Assembly (NCBI GenBank): GCA_965226495.1
Contig: OZ245365.1
Span: forward strand, 1,408,001-1,472,000
DNA from: Candidatus Marinacidobacterales bacterium
Lineage (GTDB): Bacteria; Acidobacteriota; Vicinamibacteria; Marinacidobacterales; DATDRI01
Length of the DNA: 64,000 bases
Direction of reading: 5' to 3'
The notes under the pieces were generated by a model that saw nothing but the letters and a program-made list of their open reading frames with translations, ran no database searches and had not been told where the DNA came from. Numbering within the stretch: position 1 is the first letter of the stretch; each line of letters starts with the position of its first letter. The position numbers were made by a program, and so were the translations under genes. Shown piece after piece: positions 5,755 to 15,235 of this stretch.

Positions 5755-6570
5755 CTAGACCATCCCGCCGTTCGGCGAAAGACACTGCCCGGTGATGTAG
5801 GCGGCGTCGTCCGACGCCAGAAAAAGCGCGCTGGCGGCGATGTCCTCTGCGGTCGCCCAGCGTCCCATCGGTATGCGTCTGAGGGAGCTTGCTTTGACCG
5901 GAGCCGAGATGTGGGCGGTCATGGGGGTCTCCACGAAACCGGGAGCGATGGCGTTCACTCGAATGTTCCAAGCGCCGACTTCCCGAGCCACGGAGCGCGT
6001 CAAGCCCAAGACCCCGGCTTTAGCGGCCGAGTAGTGAGGTGCATCGGGGAGCCCCACGATTGCCGCGGTGCTGGACATGTTGATGATCGCTCCTCCGTTT
6101 TGGCGTTTCATCGGCTCTAGTGTTGCGCGCGTGCAGAAGAAGGCCCCATCGAGGTGCACCTGCATCATCCGTCGCCAGGTGTTGTCACTCATCTCTGCGG
6201 TGACGTTCCAGTGAGTCTCGATCTCTTTGCCAGCGGCGAGCTCTGCGAGACGAGACTCGGCAATGCGATTGAGCTCGGGCCATCTCTCGGGCGGTTCGGC
6301 GATTCCAGCGTTGTTGACCAGGATGTCCAGTCTACCCAAGCGTCTCGCCACTTCCTCGAACATGCGCGCAACCTCGTCACTGTTCGATACGTCGGCGGCT
6401 AGAGCGTGTCCTCGAGATTGCTCGATCTCATCGAGAGTCCGTTCCGCGTCAGCCAAACGCAAATCGTTCACGACGACGATGGCTCCTTCTCGAGCGAATG
6501 CTATCGAGATGGCTCGGCCGATACCCGAACCGCCCCCAGTAACCAGCGCTACGCGATTCTCTAGTTTCAT
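5755..6570 (-). CDS. SDR family oxidoreductase (FabG-like)
   Basis: TGGGSGIG, NNAG, YSAAK and VNAIAPG motifs. Confidence 0.9.
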   Translation of the reverse strand: MKLENRVALVTGGGSGIGRAISIAFAREGAIVVVNDLRLADAERTLDEIEQSRGHALAADVSNSDEVARMFEEVARRLGRLDILVNNAGIAEPPERWPELNRIAESRLAELAAGKEIETHWNVTAEMSDNTWRRMMQVHLDGAFFCTRATLEPMKRQNGGAIINMSSTAAIVGLPDAPHYSAAKAGVLGLTRSVAREVGAWNIRVNAIAPGFVETPMTAHISAPVKASSLRRIPMGRWATAEDIAASALFLASDDAAYITGQCLSPNGGMV

Positions 6571-6586
6571 GCTGCCACCCCCCCCC

Positions 6587-6632
6587 AAAAAAAAAGAGCC
6601 CCGACCGGCTCCTTCCAGAGCGGGTCGGGGCT
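6587..6632 (-). terminator. Rho-independent terminator of the groE operon
   Basis: AGCCCCGACC/GGTCGGGGCT stem followed by T9 on the minus strand, just after groEL. Confidence 0.85.
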
Positions 6633-6658: not shown

Positions 6659-8326
<1,668 letters not shown>

Positions 8327-8388: not shown

Positions 8389-8679
8389 TTACTCGAGAAT
8401 TCCGAGTACCTCGTCTTCTCTGACGATAAGATACTCGACATCTTCCAGTTTAATTTCAGAGCCGGAATACTTTCCGACTAGAACTTTGTCGCCAACTTTG
8501 ACTTCCAGCGGAACCTTTTGTCCGTCTTTCAGCACCCGGCCTGAGCCCACCGCGATAACTTCCGCAGTCAAGGGCTTTTCCTTGGCGCTGTCGGGGATGA
8601 TGATGGATCCCACTTTTTTCTCTTCCTTATCCTCGAGACGCTTAACAACGATGTTTTCTTTGATGGGTGTGATCTTCAT
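8389..8679 (-). CDS. groS: Co-chaperonin GroES
   Basis: IIIPDSAKEKP, VKVGDKV; directly upstream of groEL. Confidence 0.98.
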   Translation of the reverse strand: MKITPIKENIVVKRLEDKEEKKVGSIIIPDSAKEKPLTAEVIAVGSGRVLKDGQKVPLEVKVGDKVLVGKYSGSEIKLEDVEYLIVREDEVLGILE

Positions 8680-8740: not shown

Positions 8741-9187
8741 TCAGCCGCCGATGGGAATGTGCTTGCTGTTTTTGTCGACCTGCTTGGGCATGATGACCAT
8801 CAGGATGCCGTCCTTGAACTCGGCCTTGACCTTCTCGGAGTCAATTGTTGTGGGTAGCGTAAAGGTCCGGTTGAACGGGCCGAAGGCTCGTTCCATTCGA
8901 TGGAACTGTTCCTGATGGATCGCCTCTTTCATGCGCCGCTCGCCCTTGAGCGAGATCCGGTTGCTGTCGATACGAAGCTCGATGTCACTTTGATCGACAT
9001 CTGGCAGCTCGGCCTTCAACACCAGGCTCTCCTGGGACTCGTAAAGATCGACCGGGGGAGACCAGGTACCAACTCCGGACACTTCCGTTTGGGAGCGAGT
9101 GCGAGAGAAGGTCTGATCGAACAACCGGTTCATACGCTCTTGGAGCGCAACTAGCTCACGAAACGGATCCCAGTGGGCGACGGGCAT
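8741..9187 (-). CDS. Hsp20/alpha-crystallin small heat shock protein
   Basis: WDPFREL, WSPPVD, ERAFGPFNRTFTLP, AEFKDGIL. Confidence 0.95.
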   Translation of the reverse strand: MPVAHWDPFRELVALQERMNRLFDQTFSRTRSQTEVSGVGTWSPPVDLYESQESLVLKAELPDVDQSDIELRIDSNRISLKGERRMKEAIHQEQFHRMERAFGPFNRTFTLPTTIDSEKVKAEFKDGILMVIMPKQVDKNSKHIPIGG

Positions 9188-9404: not shown

Positions 9405-9433
9405 TTGACAGCTAGCTTCACCTAGCCCATAGT
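9405..9433 (+). promoter_or_regulatory. Sigma-70 promoter of archease-rtcB (probably leaderless mRNA)
   Basis: TTGACA-N17-CATAGT ending 8 nt before the GTG start at 9442; no Shine-Dalgarno in between. Confidence 0.65.
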
Positions 9434-9441
9434 CTGTTTCG

Positions 9442-9855
9442 GTGCCCTACCGAGTGCTGGACCACACGGCCGACTATATGGTCGAGGTCGCGGCGGAAGG
9501 AAAGCCGGAGCTCTTCTCCGAGGCCGCGAGAGCCCTTTTCGACATCATCACCGATTTGGAAACGGTAGAACCGCGGGAATCGGTCTCGCTCAGCGTCGAA
9601 GCCGAAAGCAGCGAAGAGCTCCTAGTGTCATGGCTCACCGAGCTTCTCTTTCTGTATGAGGACCAAGGATGGTTGTTTTCTCGATTCGATCCAAGGCTAG
9701 TGGGAGATCATCGGTTCGAAGCCGAGGCGTGGGGTGAGAAGCTCGATCCCGAGCGCCATCCCATTGATCGAGAGGTGAAGGGGGTGACGTACCATCGTAT
9801 GGCATTGGTGAGGCAGGGAAAACTCCTCAAGACGACGATCGTTTTCGATCTCTGA
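9442..9855 (+). CDS. Archease (RtcB activator)
   Basis: DHTAD at the N-terminus, EVKGVTYH, and C-terminal FDL; adjacent to rtcB. Confidence 0.95.
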
Positions 9856-9875: not shown

Positions 9876-11327
9876 ATGACAAGCAAAGTCAAGATTCAGA
9901 AAATCGACGACAACCGTTGGCGTATCCCGAGGGAAGGGAAGATGCGCGTCGAGGGTTTGGTCTTCGCGAGCGAGGCTTTCGTCTCCACCCTTCGCGGAGA
10001 TCCCGCCCTCGAGCAAGTCGCCAACGTCGCCGAGCTCCCCGGTATCGTTGGCCGGTCCATCGCGATGCCGGATATTCACTGGGGCTACGGTTTCGCTATC
10101 GGGGGCGTCGCCGCTTTCTCGCCGGAAGACGACGGCGTGGTTTCGCCAGGGGGGGTGGGTTTCGACATCAACTGAGGCGTCCGGCTGCTGCGCTCAGGTC
10201 TGAGTCGCAAGGACGTGGAAGGAAAACTACCGGAGTTGGTCGACACTCTCTTTGCCAATATCCCAACCGGCGTCGGGGCGCACCGTCGCGACCTAAAGCT
10301 CCCTCAGTCTGAGTTGCGACGAGTTCTCACGCGAGGTGCGGGTTGGGCAGTAGCCAACGGCTACGGTACCGACACCGACCTCGAGTACATCGAAGAAGGA
10401 GGCTGCCTCGAAGGTGCGGATCCAGACGAAGTCAGTCCCCGCGCCATCGAACGCGGGCGTCCGCAATTGGGGACCCTCGGTTCGGGGAATCACTTTGGCG
10501 AGGTCCAGTACGTCGCGGAAATCTACGACCAAAAGCTTGCCGATGCGCTGGGTTTATTCCCCGGACAGGTGACGGTCTCGATCCACACCGGTTCCCGCGG
10601 GCTCGGCTATCAGGTGTGTGACGACTTCTTGAAGATCATGCTGCGCGCTTCCGCCAAGTACGGCATCGAGCTTCCCGATCGCCAGCTTTGCGCTGCACCT
10701 CTGACCTCTCCAGAAGCGAAGCGTTATCTTGGTGCCATGTCGGCGGCGGCCAACTACGCTTTCGCTAACCGGCAAATGATCACGCACTTGGTGCGCGAGA
10801 GTTTCGAGAGTGTGCTGGGGATTGGCCGCGGGAAACTTGACCTCGGTTTGGTTTACGACGTTTGCCACAATATCGCCAAGTTCGAGGAGCACCAGGTCGG
10901 AGGCAGAAAGAAAAAACTATGCGTCCACCGTAAGGGAGCGACGCGAGCCTTTCCGCCTGGCCATCCCGAGATTCCCTCCGCCTACCGCGCCGTCGGTCAA
11001 CCGGTCCTCATCCCTGGGGACATGGGACGCTACTCCTATGTGTTGGTAGGCACGGAGCGCGCCTATCAGGAGACATTTGGAAGTACGTGCCACGGTGCCG
11101 GACGGCGCATGAGCCGTCGCCAGGCGCGGAAGACCGCCGGCAAACGCGCCATCGTTCGCGAGATGGCAGAGCAAGGGATTATCGTCCGAGCCTCCGGGAG
11201 AGCCACGTTGGTGGAGGAGATTCCGGAGGCTTATAAAGATGTTGCAGAAGTCGTGGATGTGGTCGAGGGAGCAGGCATCAGTCGGAAGGTTGCGCAACTC
11301 CGGCCGATGGGAGTCATTAAGGGCTAG
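9876..11327 (+). CDS. rtcB: RNA-splicing ligase RtcB, 483 aa, with an in-frame TGA (10173-10175) at the catalytic Cys; probable selenoprotein
   Basis: ORFs 9876..10175 and 10215..11327 share one frame. Motifs [20 protein letters not shown] (normally DINCGVR), GSGNHF, HTGSRG, CHN, CHGAGR and terminal IKG are all intact. Confidence 0.93.
10176..10215 (+). promoter_or_regulatory. Candidate bacterial SECIS element
   Basis: Hairpin directly after the TGA: CGTCC/GGACG lower stem, TGCG/CGCA plus CTCA/TGAG upper stem with a bulged T, GGTC apical loop 21 nt from the TGA. Confidence 0.78.
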
Positions 11328-11524
11328 CCAGGTGCGCTGGACGATTCAGGGCACGCTGTGCGCAATCACGCACTAATTTCTCAGCGTCATCACCGGATCG
11401 ACCCTCGTTGCCCGACGTGTCATTAAGGGCTAGCCAGGTGCGCTGGACGATTCAGGGCACGCTGTGCGCAATCACGCACTAATTTCTCAGCGTCATCACC
11501 GGATCGACCCTCGTTGCCCGACGT
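11313..11524. repeat. Exact 106-bp tandem duplication
   Basis: 11313-11418 is repeated at 11419-11524, covering the rtcB 3' end, the intergenic gap and the permease 3' end. Confidence 0.9.
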
Positions 11525-12486
11525 GCCGGCAAATAGGAAGCTAAGCCGGCGACCAGCAGCAACGCAAGCGGCGTCACCGCAAACGCCATGGGGTCGATGG
11601 GTTGGACTCCGTAGAGTAGGGTTGCCAAGACTCGCGCCAAGATGAAAGTCATTGGCGCTCCGAGGGCCAAACCGGCGACGGTCAGAGCCAATTCTCTGCG
11701 CATGACTCCAGAAAGCAGGGAGGAACGCGGCGCGCCAAGGGCCATTCGGATCCCGAGCTCATGTGTTCTCTGTTTCACTACGTAAGAGAGAACTCCGTAG
11801 AGACCGAGGCCGGCCAGGAGAAGACCGAAAAACGCGAAGCACGCGAGCACCGAAGCGTAGAGCCGAGGGCGTGCGACGATGGTCGAGAATGCGGTGTCCA
11901 ACGAGGCGACCTCGTGAACCACGCGGGACTCCAATTCTCTCGAGGCCTTGCCAACTTGAACGGTGAGGGTTTCCGGCTCGACGGAGCCCCTAACTACCAA
12001 GCCCATCGAGCTCCAAGGAAATTGCGCGTGAGGTACGTAGACCTGAGGCTCAACGATCGCGGCTGGTCCGAAGTGGCTGATATCATCGACCACACCGACG
12101 ATCTCGCGGGCAAGTAGCTCGTCTCCGGTGAACGTGATGTCGAAGACGATGCGGCGTCCGATCGGATCCCGGTCGGCGCAGTGCCGGCGCGCGAGCTCAC
12201 GGCTGACGATCACCGCCGGTGTCGAATCGGCCGAGTCACGATTGTCGAACCATCGTCCTTCGATGAGCCGCGCCCCCAGCGTTTCGAAGAACCCCGGGCT
12301 AATGACGTGCGTTAACGCTCTTGGGGTTTCCGACGCCGGTGGTGTCGGATCTCCCTCCACCGCATAGTCTGCTCGGTCGGCTTGTTTGGCTACGCGAATT
12401 CATAAAGTAAGTGCAACACAGCTCCCGGATGAGGTGACCTGGAATGTGCCACGATTCCTCAAACAACCAAGAATGGGGACTCGCTA

Positions 12487-13506
12487 ATGACTTATTACCA
12501 GATCACCTCGGAAGAACGCTACACCATCGCGGCGCTGCGACGGGAGGGATTTTGCTCGGCCGAGATCGCGCGGCGCCTGGGGCGCCACCGGAGCACCATC
12601 TCGAGAGAGGTCAGGAGGAACAGCTCACCTAGTGATGGATGCTACCGGCCGAGCAAGGCCATCGAGAGAACGAACGGACGACGCTCGCGGTCTCGCCGGA
12701 ACCAGTACTTCACAAAGGCCGACTTTGCCCTGGTGGAGAAGAAGCTTAAGGCCGACTGGAGCCCAGAGCAGATCTCCGGCCACCTGCGCCTTCACGGCGA
12801 GCTCTCGATCAGCCACGAGACGATCTACACCCACGTTTGGCGGGACAAGGAGGCCGGAGGACATCTATACCGCCACCTTCGATGCTCGCCCAAACTTAGA
12901 CGCAAGCGCCACAACAGCTACGACAGCCGAGGCCGCCTGGCCGGGAAGCGTCACATCTCCGAGCGGCCGTCTTGTATCGACAAGCGCCGTGCCGTTGGCC
13001 ACTGGGAGATTGACACCGTGGTAGGAAAAGACGCGCCGGACTGCGTCACCACGCTCGTGGAACGAAAGACGGGCTATGCGCTGATCGGCAAACTGTCCGA
13101 CCGCAGCATGTTCGGCACTAGCCAGCGAACGAAGATGTTGCTCCGGCGGGTGCCGGATCAGGTCAAGACCATCACCGCGGACAATGGCACGGAGTTCCAC
13201 GACTACGAATCCGTCGAGGAAGCGACCGGCGTCAAGTTCTACTTTGCAACTCCCTATCACTCATGGGAGAGAGGCAGCAACGAGAACTTCAATGGATTGC
13301 TACGACAATACCTGCCGAAGCGCACCAGCCAAGCAGCGCTCACGCAACGCCACTGCGATGGTATCGCAAAGAAGCTCAACACACGGCCCCGCAAGAGGCT
13401 CGGTTACCGCACACCGGAGGAACGTTTCCATGGGCAAGAGGCTCGGTTACCGCACACCGGAGGAACGTTTCCATGGGAACTAACGAATGGTGCGCTTCAA
13501 ACTTGA
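12487..13506 (+). CDS. IS30 family transposase (C-terminus altered by a 43-bp duplication)
   Basis: HTH RHRSTISREVRRN, WSPEQI, GHWEIDTV, TADNGTEF, WERGSNEN, RPRKRLGYRTP. Confidence 0.95.
   Translation: MTYYQITSEERYTIAALRREGFCSAEIARRLGRHRSTISREVRRNSSPSDGCYRPSKAIERTNGRRSRSRRNQYFTKADFALVEKKLKADWSPEQISGHLRLHGELSISHETIYTHVWRDKEAGGHLYRHLRCSPKLRRKRHNSYDSRGRLAGKRHISERPSCIDKRRAVGHWEIDTVVGKDAPDCVTTLVERKTGYALIGKLSDRSMFGTSQRTKMLLRRVPDQVKTITADNGTEFHDYESVEEATGVKFYFATPYHSWERGSNENFNGLLRQYLPKRTSQAALTQRHCDGIAKKLNTRPRKRLGYRTPEERFHGQEARLPHTGGTFPWELTNGALQT
13391..13477. repeat. 43-bp tandem duplication inside the IS30 transposase 3' end
   Basis: GCAAGAGGCTCGGTTACCGCACACCGGAGGAACGTTTCCATGG occurs twice in tandem. 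Confidence 0.9.
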
Positions 13507-15235
13507 AGTCACACTACGTAAGGCACCTGCAGGGTCGCGCCAACGGAGCTCACTCCCGGGAGCCGTCTCACATCTCGTAAGAGATTCTCGAAGAACGCGG
13601 CCCTCCGCGCCGGTTCGGGGTACTGGCGGAAGGGCAACGAGACGCGCAGAGAAACGACTTCCTCGGGCTCGAAGCCGGGATCTTTCTGCTGGAGGAAAAT
13701 GAAGCTGTGGATCAACAGGCCGGCGCCGATCAGTAGCGGTAGTGCGATGGTGACTTGACCCACGACGAATAGATCCTTGAATCGACTACCCGCCGAGCTG
13801 GTGTTTTTTCCCGCCTCTCTGAGGAAGCCGGCGGCAATATCTCCCCTCAACATCAGGAAGCTTGGTAAGAGGCCAAAGACGACGGTCGACCCGAGGGCCA
13901 GCACCATAGTGAAGCTCAGAACCGCATGGTCCACGCCGAGCCCCTCCGCGCGCGGGAGACCTGGCGGTAGCAAGGTGGATAGCGCCGGAAGTACCCAGAG
14001 CACGATGGTCAGGGCCAGCGCGGCTCCGGCGAGAGCGAGCAACAGGCTCTCTGCCAACACTTGGCGCACCAGATCACCCCGGCCGCCTCCCAGCGCCAAC
14101 CGAATCGCGATCTCCCGCCGATCGCTCATGATGCGAGAGAGCATGAGGTTGGCGATGTTGGCGCAGGCGATGAGGAGGACGAACCCCACCGCGGCCTGGA
14201 GCAGGTAGAGTCCCGGCCTCGTTTGGCCGACGAAAGAATCGAGTACCGGTTCTACCGACACTTTCCACCCGGCGTAGGTCTCAGGGAAGTCTTGCGCCAG
14301 CCGATGGCTTACCACTTGAAGGTGGGTCGTTGCTGCCCCAATGGATACACCGGGCTCGAGTCGGCCGAAAGCGGTGTAGATCCGAAAGTGGGGATTGCTG
14401 GGATTTTCTCCCGCTCGCAAGGCGACCCATAGCTCGGGACTCGCCTCGCTTCCCAGATCGTGGCCGTAGATCTCCGGAGGAGCAACCCCGATCATGGTGT
14501 GATCGATTCCACCGAGGTTGAGCACTTGACCCAGCGCGCCGGCATCGCCGCCCAGTCGCTCGAGCCAGAACCGGTGGCTCACCACGGTGAGCGGCAGACT
14601 ATCCGCGGCCTCGTCTTCCTTGCCAAAGAATCTCCCGGCGGCCGGTCGAACGCCGAACACGTCGAAGTAGTTGGCGGATACGACTCCGTGGTTGACTTGC
14701 TCGTTCCACTGGCTGGTGCGCCACATGACACCGAAATAGGTCGAGAACGCGAGATCGGAGAAGCCTTCGCCCTCCCGCCGCCACGCGCGGGCCTCCGAGA
14801 CGGATGTCCAATCGAGATGGCCTTCGGCCTCGTTGAGGGAGAGGATGCGCACCAGCCGATCCGGATCTATGTAGGGGAGTGGGCGCAGCAAGATGGAGTA
14901 GACGATGCTTGAAGACCAAGGTGGTGGCGGAGATACCGAGGGTCAGGACCGAGACCACTCCTAGAGCGAAGCCGGGTGCCCTGCGGAGCCTTCGCCAAGC
15001 GTAGCGAATGTCGTTCGAGAGGAATCTCACCATGTCACTGTCGATTTGCAATAACTATACCGCGCGGAACCCTCGTGAACCGCCGAGAATCGCGGTCGAC
15101 CCGTCACCAACTCTGGTCGATGCCCGCCATCGGGACGACCGGCTCCCGAAAACGGACAGCTTTGTTCGCCGGCGGTTTTGACAACAACTTCCGCACCGGG
15201 GTATAGGGAAGCTTCACTGCTTGAGCGGAAACACG

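Follow-up and report, generated by a model that had tools for sequence, protein, structure and literature searches.

We analysed a 64,000-nucleotide stretch of DNA (the window) from the genome of a Candidatus Marinacidobacterales bacterium (assembly GCA_965226495.1, contig OZ245365.1, positions 1,408,001 to 1,472,000), which carries rtcB, a gene for an RNA ligase of the RtcB family, with an archease gene just upstream. The reading frame of rtcB is interrupted once, by a TGA codon in the column of a metal-binding cysteine (Cys), and an earlier note on this DNA had proposed that the codon is read as selenocysteine (Sec). The principal features of the locus, in window coordinates, are as follows.

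9442..9855 (+): archease, the activator partner of RtcB; full-length match to Pfam Archease at 138.4 bits; its own stop is the TGA at 9853-9855
9876..11327 (+): rtcB, 483 codons with one in-frame TGA and a TAG stop; full-length match to PF01139
10173..10175 (+): UGA codon 100, the proposed Sec codon, in the column of Cys98 of Pyrococcus horikoshii RtcB, the ligand that bridges Mn1 and Mn2
10189..10209 (+): hairpin of the selenocysteine insertion sequence (SECIS) type, 8 bp, with a bulged U at 10205 and the apical loop GGUC at 10197-10200

Under translation table 11, rtcB appears as two open reading frames (ORFs), 9876-10175 (99 amino acids [aa]) and 10215-11327 (370 aa, with a GTG start). The earlier note had taken these two fragments for one frame broken only by the TGA at 10173-10175, with the remaining catalytic motifs intact and an archease gene upstream, and our analysis confirmed each of these points. 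The 483-codon frame contains no frameshift and no second internal stop, and the residues around codon 100 read GGVGFDIN-[TGA]-GVRLLRSG. The read-through protein matched Pfam RtcB (PF01139) with 590.1 bits (cut-off 27) over profile positions 1-426 of 426, and it matched the solved structures of Thermus TTHA1785 and P. horikoshii RtcB with 634 and 580 bits, respectively. All of the named motifs were located (MPDIH at 64, GSGNHF at 202, HTGSRG at 237, CHN at 330, and CHGAGR at 405), as was the C-terminal IKG. No second RtcB was found in a search of the genome, so that rtcB is its sole RtcB match.

The note's placement of the UGA at the catalytic Cys also held, since codon 100 aligns with Cys98 of the P. 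horikoshii enzyme (residue 118 of chain 7lfq_A, which has 20 extra N-terminal residues). In the available text of PMC9745838, this Cys bridges Mn1 (with His234 and His329) and Mn2 (with Asp95 and His203), its replacement by alanine abolishes all ligation steps, and it is seen as a sulfonic acid in one crystal; PMC12263435, as far as its text was available, terms the active-site Cys of RtcB invariant and prone to oxidative inactivation. The other active-site residues of the window's protein, D97, N205, H206, H237, H331, N332, and H406 (D95, N202, H203, H234, H329, N330, and H404 in Pyrococcus), are invariant in 68 of 68 complete TGA forms and 34 of 34 Cys forms. Across these 102 sequences, the known ligand set (Pyrococcus Asp95, Cys98, His203, His234, and His329) and the guanylylated His404 are thus all present, with either UGA or Cys at position 100.

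The same TGA recurs in other genomes. Our set of relatives comprised 61 genomes, including the window's own (G000), and yielded 18 loci with a full-length rtcB ortholog. Six of the 18 have TGA at the Cys column (G000, G001, G002, G003, G004, and G005, which represent four genera of one family, f1); the RtcB proteins of the five f1 relatives are 79-95% identical to that of the window. The other 12 loci have TGC, among them that of G006, also of f1, which brings the family to six TGA forms in seven orthologs. A phylum-wide sample of 401 genomes gave a match in 163 at E <= 1e-60, and among the best 150 of 165 matches, 14 genomes besides G000 had one TGA, in 12 cases at the Cys column. The TGA flagged in G274 is the stop that precedes the start codon. 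At another locus (L078, G175:C1:95608-98050), the ligand column holds Cys (TGT) and an in-frame TGA falls instead at the column of S188 (Ser) of G000; apart from this codon, the frame has the full length and closes with IKG, and its off-column TGA might reflect an error, a nonsense mutation, or a separate case of recoding.

When the codon at the Cys98 column was inspected in 53 orthologs (the 18 of the relatives set, the 29 best-scoring of the phylum sample other than the window's own, and 6 taken for their flagged TGA), we found 18 TGA, 33 TGC, and 2 TGT. Some relatives thus have the TGA at this very column and others a Cys codon, as expected under the note's reading, and this recurrence at one column excludes chance. 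One Cys-form row (L049) comes from the unpublished genome G209, and the unpublished G007 gave a weak partial match; no claim is made on either alone. We also scanned one genome per species for the exact pattern G-[FY]-D-I-N-TGA-G-V-R, for which about 1-2 chance matches would be expected (a rough estimate, not computed). At least 119 further stretches with TGA at the motif were found. Among the 80 matches listed, record titles name Acidobacteriota, Thermodesulfobacteriota, Nitrospirota, Candidatus Binatia, Candidatus Eisenbacteria, Gemmatimonadales, Polyangiaceae, and one member of the Pseudomonadota, and many carry older "Deltaproteobacteria" labels. A downstream stop is reached in 61 of these 80, in 58 cases 378-383 codons after the TGA with an RtcB-like end, and the other 19 frames run past the edge of the locus. 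The note had cast the TGA form as an oddity of a single organism; on these counts, that part of its account does not stand.

The genome to which the window belongs (one contig, 6.34 Mb, 59% G+C) holds the Sec machinery that the note had called for. A tRNA-Sec with the anticodon TCA scored 70.9 bits (cut-off 47), SelA 474 bits, and SelD 332 bits, and the SelB-specific wing domain was found at 58.5 bits within a 660-aa frame, so that selA, selB, selC, and selD, the set expected for a bacterial selenoprotein, occur in the same genome. The selD frame itself has an in-frame TGA (...SAG-U-ASK...) at the known Sec position of the SelD family (motif UxxK; PMC13188914 Table 1). SelA was also found in 17 of 17 other genomes with a TGA-containing rtcB. 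TGA is not reassigned in this genome, because it is the commonest stop of long frames (closing 890 of 2,114 open frames of at least 400 codons) and archease, too, ends in TGA.

The hairpin at 10189-10209 begins 13 nucleotides (nt) past the TGA codon (nt 17-37 counted from the U of UGA), with 21 nt from UGA to loop and a local folding energy of -9.5 kcal/mol. An equivalent hairpin was present in 18 of 18 TGA forms, with 7-10 bp, a loop that starts 18-21 nt after the UGA, and G-U within the loop. The stem sequences vary by lineage, and the loops are GGUC in 12 forms, GGUCU in 3, and GGUU, CGGGUU, and AGUUC in 1 each. Only 2 of 35 Cys forms have the same hairpin (L022 in G006 and L052 in G174); both adjoin TGA forms in the tree described below, which suggests that their hairpins are fossil SECIS elements left by a recent change from Sec to Cys. 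Folding energies of TGA and Cys forms were separated in a 28-nt window (-10.7 versus -6.5 kcal/mol), although kinship inflates the significance of this difference; in a 41-nt window they were not (-13.6 versus -12.4 kcal/mol). The hairpin is also constrained as RNA, because its codons are frozen at synonymous sites: in the six f1 TGA genomes, one codon is used throughout in 5 of 7 hairpin codons, versus 5 of 153 other columns with an invariant residue (at least four-fold degenerate). Twenty loci with Nitrospirota-type titles lack this hairpin. What they have in common is a longer stem-loop at nt 14-55, with compensatory changes on both sides at 5 of its 18 pairs.

As an internal control, we scanned the whole genome for in-frame TGA codons followed by a hairpin with a GGU-initial loop. 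Most of the 63 candidates were spurious frames. Besides rtcB itself, the candidates included three whose identity Pfam confirmed: a peroxiredoxin (TPG-U-T), a molybdopterin enzyme of the FdhA type (CNRT-U-HAP, with the loop GGUCU), and a rhodanese (YCT-U). Their TGA codons correspond to the catalogued Sec motifs T-x-x-U, U-H-x-P, and C-x-U (PMC13188914 Table 1).

With the machinery, the shared TGA, the conserved SECIS-type hairpin, and the selection described below, the data support the note's reading of UGA-100 as a recoded Sec codon at the level of sequence. We therefore consider it very probable that rtcB is an intact gene for a Sec-containing 3'-phosphate/5'-OH RNA ligase, in which the hairpin directs decoding of the UGA and a selenolate occupies the Cys98 site.

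Several observations weigh against this interpretation. The rtcB hairpin conforms to the generic description of a bacterial SECIS (bSECIS; PMC13188914 Fig. 2A: loop of 3-9 nt with G in its two opening positions, stem of 4 bp or more, spacing of 16-37 nt, and minimum free energy at or below -7.5 kcal/mol) with its GGUC loop, 8 bp, 21-nt spacing, and -9.5 kcal/mol; however, while all 18 TGA forms pass this description, so do 18 of 35 Cys forms, and because the DNA is GC-rich, a pass means little. In our own implementation, the description was satisfied by 67 of 79 pattern-scan loci and failed by 12. Folded as one piece, the 68 nt that follow the UGA are no more stable than shuffled sequences (z = 0.55; 146 of 200 shuffles equal or better), and RNAalifold found no consensus structure in an ungapped alignment of the 18 TGA forms, a null result that arises because the hairpins sit in different registers. 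SelA is found in 32 of 35 Cys-form genomes as well and is thus a necessary condition that does not discriminate. Among the 80 pattern matches listed, 3 have short downstream frames (L121, L150, and L148, the last with masked bases). Counts of TGA forms overstate the number of separate events, because relatives are not independent. Lastly, a Pyrococcus RtcB engineered to carry Sec98 cleaved itself spontaneously, according to the available text of PMC4150793, and tolerance of Sec at this position can therefore not be taken for granted.

The alternative that fares best is that UGA-100 is read through without Sec, by near-cognate insertion of Cys, tryptophan, or arginine or by insertion of Cys via the Sec machinery. 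The residue inserted at UGA-100 is a prediction from sequence, Cys at column 100 works in most relatives, and the generic SECIS model is unspecific in this DNA, all of which would fit such an account. Plain read-through requires no hairpin, however, yet the hairpin lies at the same offset in every TGA form and its codons are frozen at synonymous sites, and in this very genome a hairpin of the same type follows the TGA in genes of catalogued selenoprotein families. SelA accompanies the TGA-containing rtcB in 18 of 18 genomes, and, with TGC only a single substitution away, one would hardly expect many lineages to maintain a leaky stop codon for an essential ligand. We regard read-through without Sec as very improbable.

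A second alternative, that rtcB is a pseudogene left by a recent nonsense mutation of the Cys codon, has in its favor that TGC to TGA is a single substitution and that public gene callers give only the downstream fragment (P0005, P0007, and P0009; 363-375 aa, 93-95% identity), a miscall by standard pipelines that the note had foreseen. Public full-length proteins also exist (P0002-P0004, 80-90% identity) and print C at column 100, where a stored U may be printed as C. Selection on the frame argues against a pseudogene. Among seven f1 orthologs, the ratio of nonsynonymous to synonymous divergence (dN/dS), taken from a codon alignment because the upstream part has a one-codon indel across genera, is 0.04-0.09 upstream of the TGA (95 codons) and 0.04-0.12 downstream (383 codons), so that purifying selection acts on both halves, with no relaxation downstream, at synonymous sites that are near saturation (synonymous divergence between genera is at least 1.1 and often saturated). 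The same UGA is shared by genomes in four genera of that family and by many other lineages, and the sole RtcB gene of the genome retains invariant catalytic residues and is free of frameshifts and other stops. A degraded gene is thus a very poor explanation.

We assign just as little probability to a third alternative, in which the TGA is a true stop and rtcB gives either two polypeptides that assemble (residues 1-99 and about 114-483) or a truncated, selenium-independent product with another role. The ORF with a GTG start at 10215 would be consistent with a second polypeptide. Such an enzyme would nevertheless lack the bridging ligand, whose change to alanine abolishes ligation (PMC9745838, available text), and Cys forms are single chains. 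Moreover, of the 13 codons that separate the TGA from the GTG, the first 11 encode residues that are identical in six of six f1 TGA genomes, and this stretch is therefore under protein-level constraint. A sequencing or assembly error hiding a TGC or TGT is the least probable of all. In runs X1, X2, and X5, which come from three studies, contigs cover 10173-10175 without a single mismatch and with no other letter listed; at most two of these runs are independent, as the window may itself derive from one of them. The TGA is also present in many separate assemblies, and the codon that the note reported is thus almost certainly not a misread Cys codon.

To place the two forms relative to each other, we used a tree of 102 RtcB sequences, which includes 50 pattern-scan rows chosen for their TGA and excludes 31 rows with incomplete frames. 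At least 12 changes between Sec and Cys are needed on this tree, 8 of them forced by well-supported branches. With the pattern-scan rows removed (52 sequences, 18 Sec and 34 Cys, of which 5 come from loci taken for a flagged TGA), at least 11 changes are needed, 7 of them forced. Both forms are mixed inside the single families f1, f47, f66, f67, and f73. In the 102-sequence tree, the rows from the window's own phylum fall among rows titled Acidobacteriota, to which the window's organism thus probably belongs. By this tree, the putative Sec form and the Cys form of RtcB interchange often.

If UGA-100 is a Sec codon, SelB carrying Sec-tRNA(Sec) would bind the hairpin at 10189-10209 during translation, and the UGA would be decoded as Sec with no termination. 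A selenolate would then stand in for the thiolate of Cys98 as the bridge between the two Mn2+ ions of the GTP site, while the rest of the catalytic apparatus (the Asp, three His ligands, two Asn, and the guanylylated His) is unchanged. Given these residues and the archease encoded just upstream, the usual three-step GTP- and Mn-dependent ligation, assisted by archease, would be expected from homology. As for the benefit of Sec, we can only speculate; the explanation that we prefer is that a selenolate may resist irreversible over-oxidation of a residue that is oxidation sensitive in its Cys form, because Sec is regarded as resistant to irreversible oxidation (PMC13188914, sections 7 and 8, available text). 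Altered metal affinity or a lower pKa are alternative benefits that might apply.

Around rtcB, archease matches adjoin the gene in 98 of 133 loci. In the window, the following site precedes archease.

9405..9433 (+): promoter-like site 5' of archease, TTGACA-17-CATAGT, 10 of 12 consensus matches

The region has 4 promoter-like sites versus a mean of 1.0 in shuffles; these are consensus matches only and no evidence of function. Divergent from archease and rtcB are genes for HSP20 (8741-9187, -), GroES (8389-8679, -), and GroEL (6659-8317, -), so that the RNA-repair pair adjoins heat-shock genes, and beyond GroEL lies a short-chain dehydrogenase (5755-6588, -). A perfect 106-nt tandem duplication (11313-11418 and 11419-11524) starts 15 nt before the end of rtcB; it repeats the last rtcB codons and the stop, has a terminator-like stem in each copy, and could be a real duplication or an assembly artefact. 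Further downstream, a transposase of the insertion sequence type with an HTH_38 and an integrase core domain (12487-13506, +) is flanked by two ORFs for FtsX/MacB-type permeases (11479-12360, -, and 13509-14891, -), and the arrangement at 11479-14891 looks like a permease gene split by an insertion sequence. A search of the window with ARAGORN gave no tRNA. Metatranscriptome run X18 contains one 202-nt contig at 10598-10799; such libraries can contain DNA, so the contig is no evidence of transcription.

Elsewhere in the genome, we noted large proteins in which FG-GAP and ASPIC-UnbV domains are fused to an AhpC/TSA domain and whose genes have one in-frame TGA (...GDS-U-STFW..., ...KDL-U-SFFW...) followed by a GGUC-type hairpin. 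They are given here in coordinates of the genome's contig and, for two of them, of the extracted locus.

G000:C1:3213689-3216871 = L208:90-3272 (-): FG-GAP/ASPIC-UnbV-AhpC/TSA fusion, in-frame TGA and hairpin
G000:C1:2541166-2544963 = L207:67-3864 (-): FG-GAP/ASPIC-UnbV-AhpC/TSA fusion, in-frame TGA and hairpin
G000:C1:4670341-4672020 (-): FG-GAP/ASPIC-UnbV-AhpC/TSA fusion, in-frame TGA and hairpin

Matches to these fusions have one TGA, at whatever column, in 10 of 11 cases (7 of 21 genomes), with relatives at 33-54% identity. The terms FG-GAP, ASPIC, UnbV, VCBS, and CRTAC do not occur in the text of the 2026 selenoprotein catalogue (PMC13188914), and the fusions may represent a further family with recoding. 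A frame of 472 aa that has TPR repeats in its C-terminal part (G000:C1:5009230-5010645, +; L206:31-1446) likewise contains an in-frame TGA (...PTAGT-U-EGG...); a 7-bp hairpin with the loop GGUC follows it.

The note had left in doubt whether Sec-RtcB was already catalogued. RtcB has no entry in the 2026 inventory of 119 selenoprotein families and subfamilies, which describes itself as the most comprehensive (PMC13188914 Table 1), and the main text of the deep-Sep paper does not mention ligase or splicing. No RtcB selenoprotein model was among the NCBIfam matches. In the main texts searched, we found no report of a natural Sec-RtcB, only of the engineered protein; supplementary tables or database annotation might list one. 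Sec-RtcB is apparently a widespread, unreported variant of a well-known enzyme and, judging from the distribution of the TGA, probably an overlooked selenoprotein family that occurs in many bacteria. We hold the fuller proposition more tentatively, as possible but rather doubtful: that Sec-RtcB is a genuine, widespread, uncatalogued family in which selenium bridges the Mn pair and has been retained because a selenolate is spared the irreversible oxidation by which Cys-RtcB is inactivated.

With a Sec-RtcB, the selenoproteome, which is described as consisting mostly of redox proteins, would gain an enzyme of nucleic-acid repair, and matched Sec and Cys pairs could be used to test the value of selenium outside redox catalysis, in terms of oxidation resistance, metal choice, and reaction rate. 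In genomes with a TGA-containing rtcB, the capacity for RNA repair is under-called, because public gene callers report no more than the downstream fragment.

The closest known systems are the Cys-type enzymes (P. horikoshii RtcB; Thermus thermophilus TTHA1785, PDB 2epg; human RTCB). Homology to these extends over the full length (580-634 bits for the prokaryotic structures and 464 bits for other RtcB homologs), and they share the same ligands, the His nucleophile, and an archease encoded alongside; the difference is that the residue bridging Mn1 and Mn2 is here encoded by a UGA followed by a SECIS-type hairpin. The engineered P. horikoshii Sec98 protein of 2014 (PMC4150793, available text) has Sec at the same residue. 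Unlike the forms described here, which have a UGA and a hairpin and are under purifying selection, it is man-made, uses a UAG codon and an EF-Tu-based system, and is self-cleaving, and its Cys98 is also an intein splice junction. The best NCBIfam match of the read-through protein is in fact the intein-containing RtcB model, whose alignment resumes at residue 99; together with the splice junction at Cys98, this suggests that inteins in the RtcB family are inserted at the residue that would be Sec here.

Selenium as a direct metal ligand is known from formate dehydrogenase alpha (Mo/W-Se) and the [NiFeSe] hydrogenases, and for the latter, the proposed advantage of Sec is protection from irreversible over-oxidation (PMC13188914, section 7, available text). 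These are redox enzymes, whereas RtcB carries out nucleotidyl transfer at a binuclear Mn site with no redox step. The Cys of RtcB is nonetheless the weak point of the enzyme, as it is found as a sulfonic acid in crystals and animals keep a protective flavoprotein for it (PMC9745838 and PMC12263435, available text). That flavoprotein, PYROXD1, protects human RTCB from the same weakness, the oxidative inactivation of the active-site Cys (PMC12263435), but it is a separate protein that shields the site, while in the bacteria described here the residue itself is altered. By analogy, Sec in RtcB may serve the same end as PYROXD1, and if so, Sec-RtcB would be a bacterial, residue-level counterpart of the protection found in animals.

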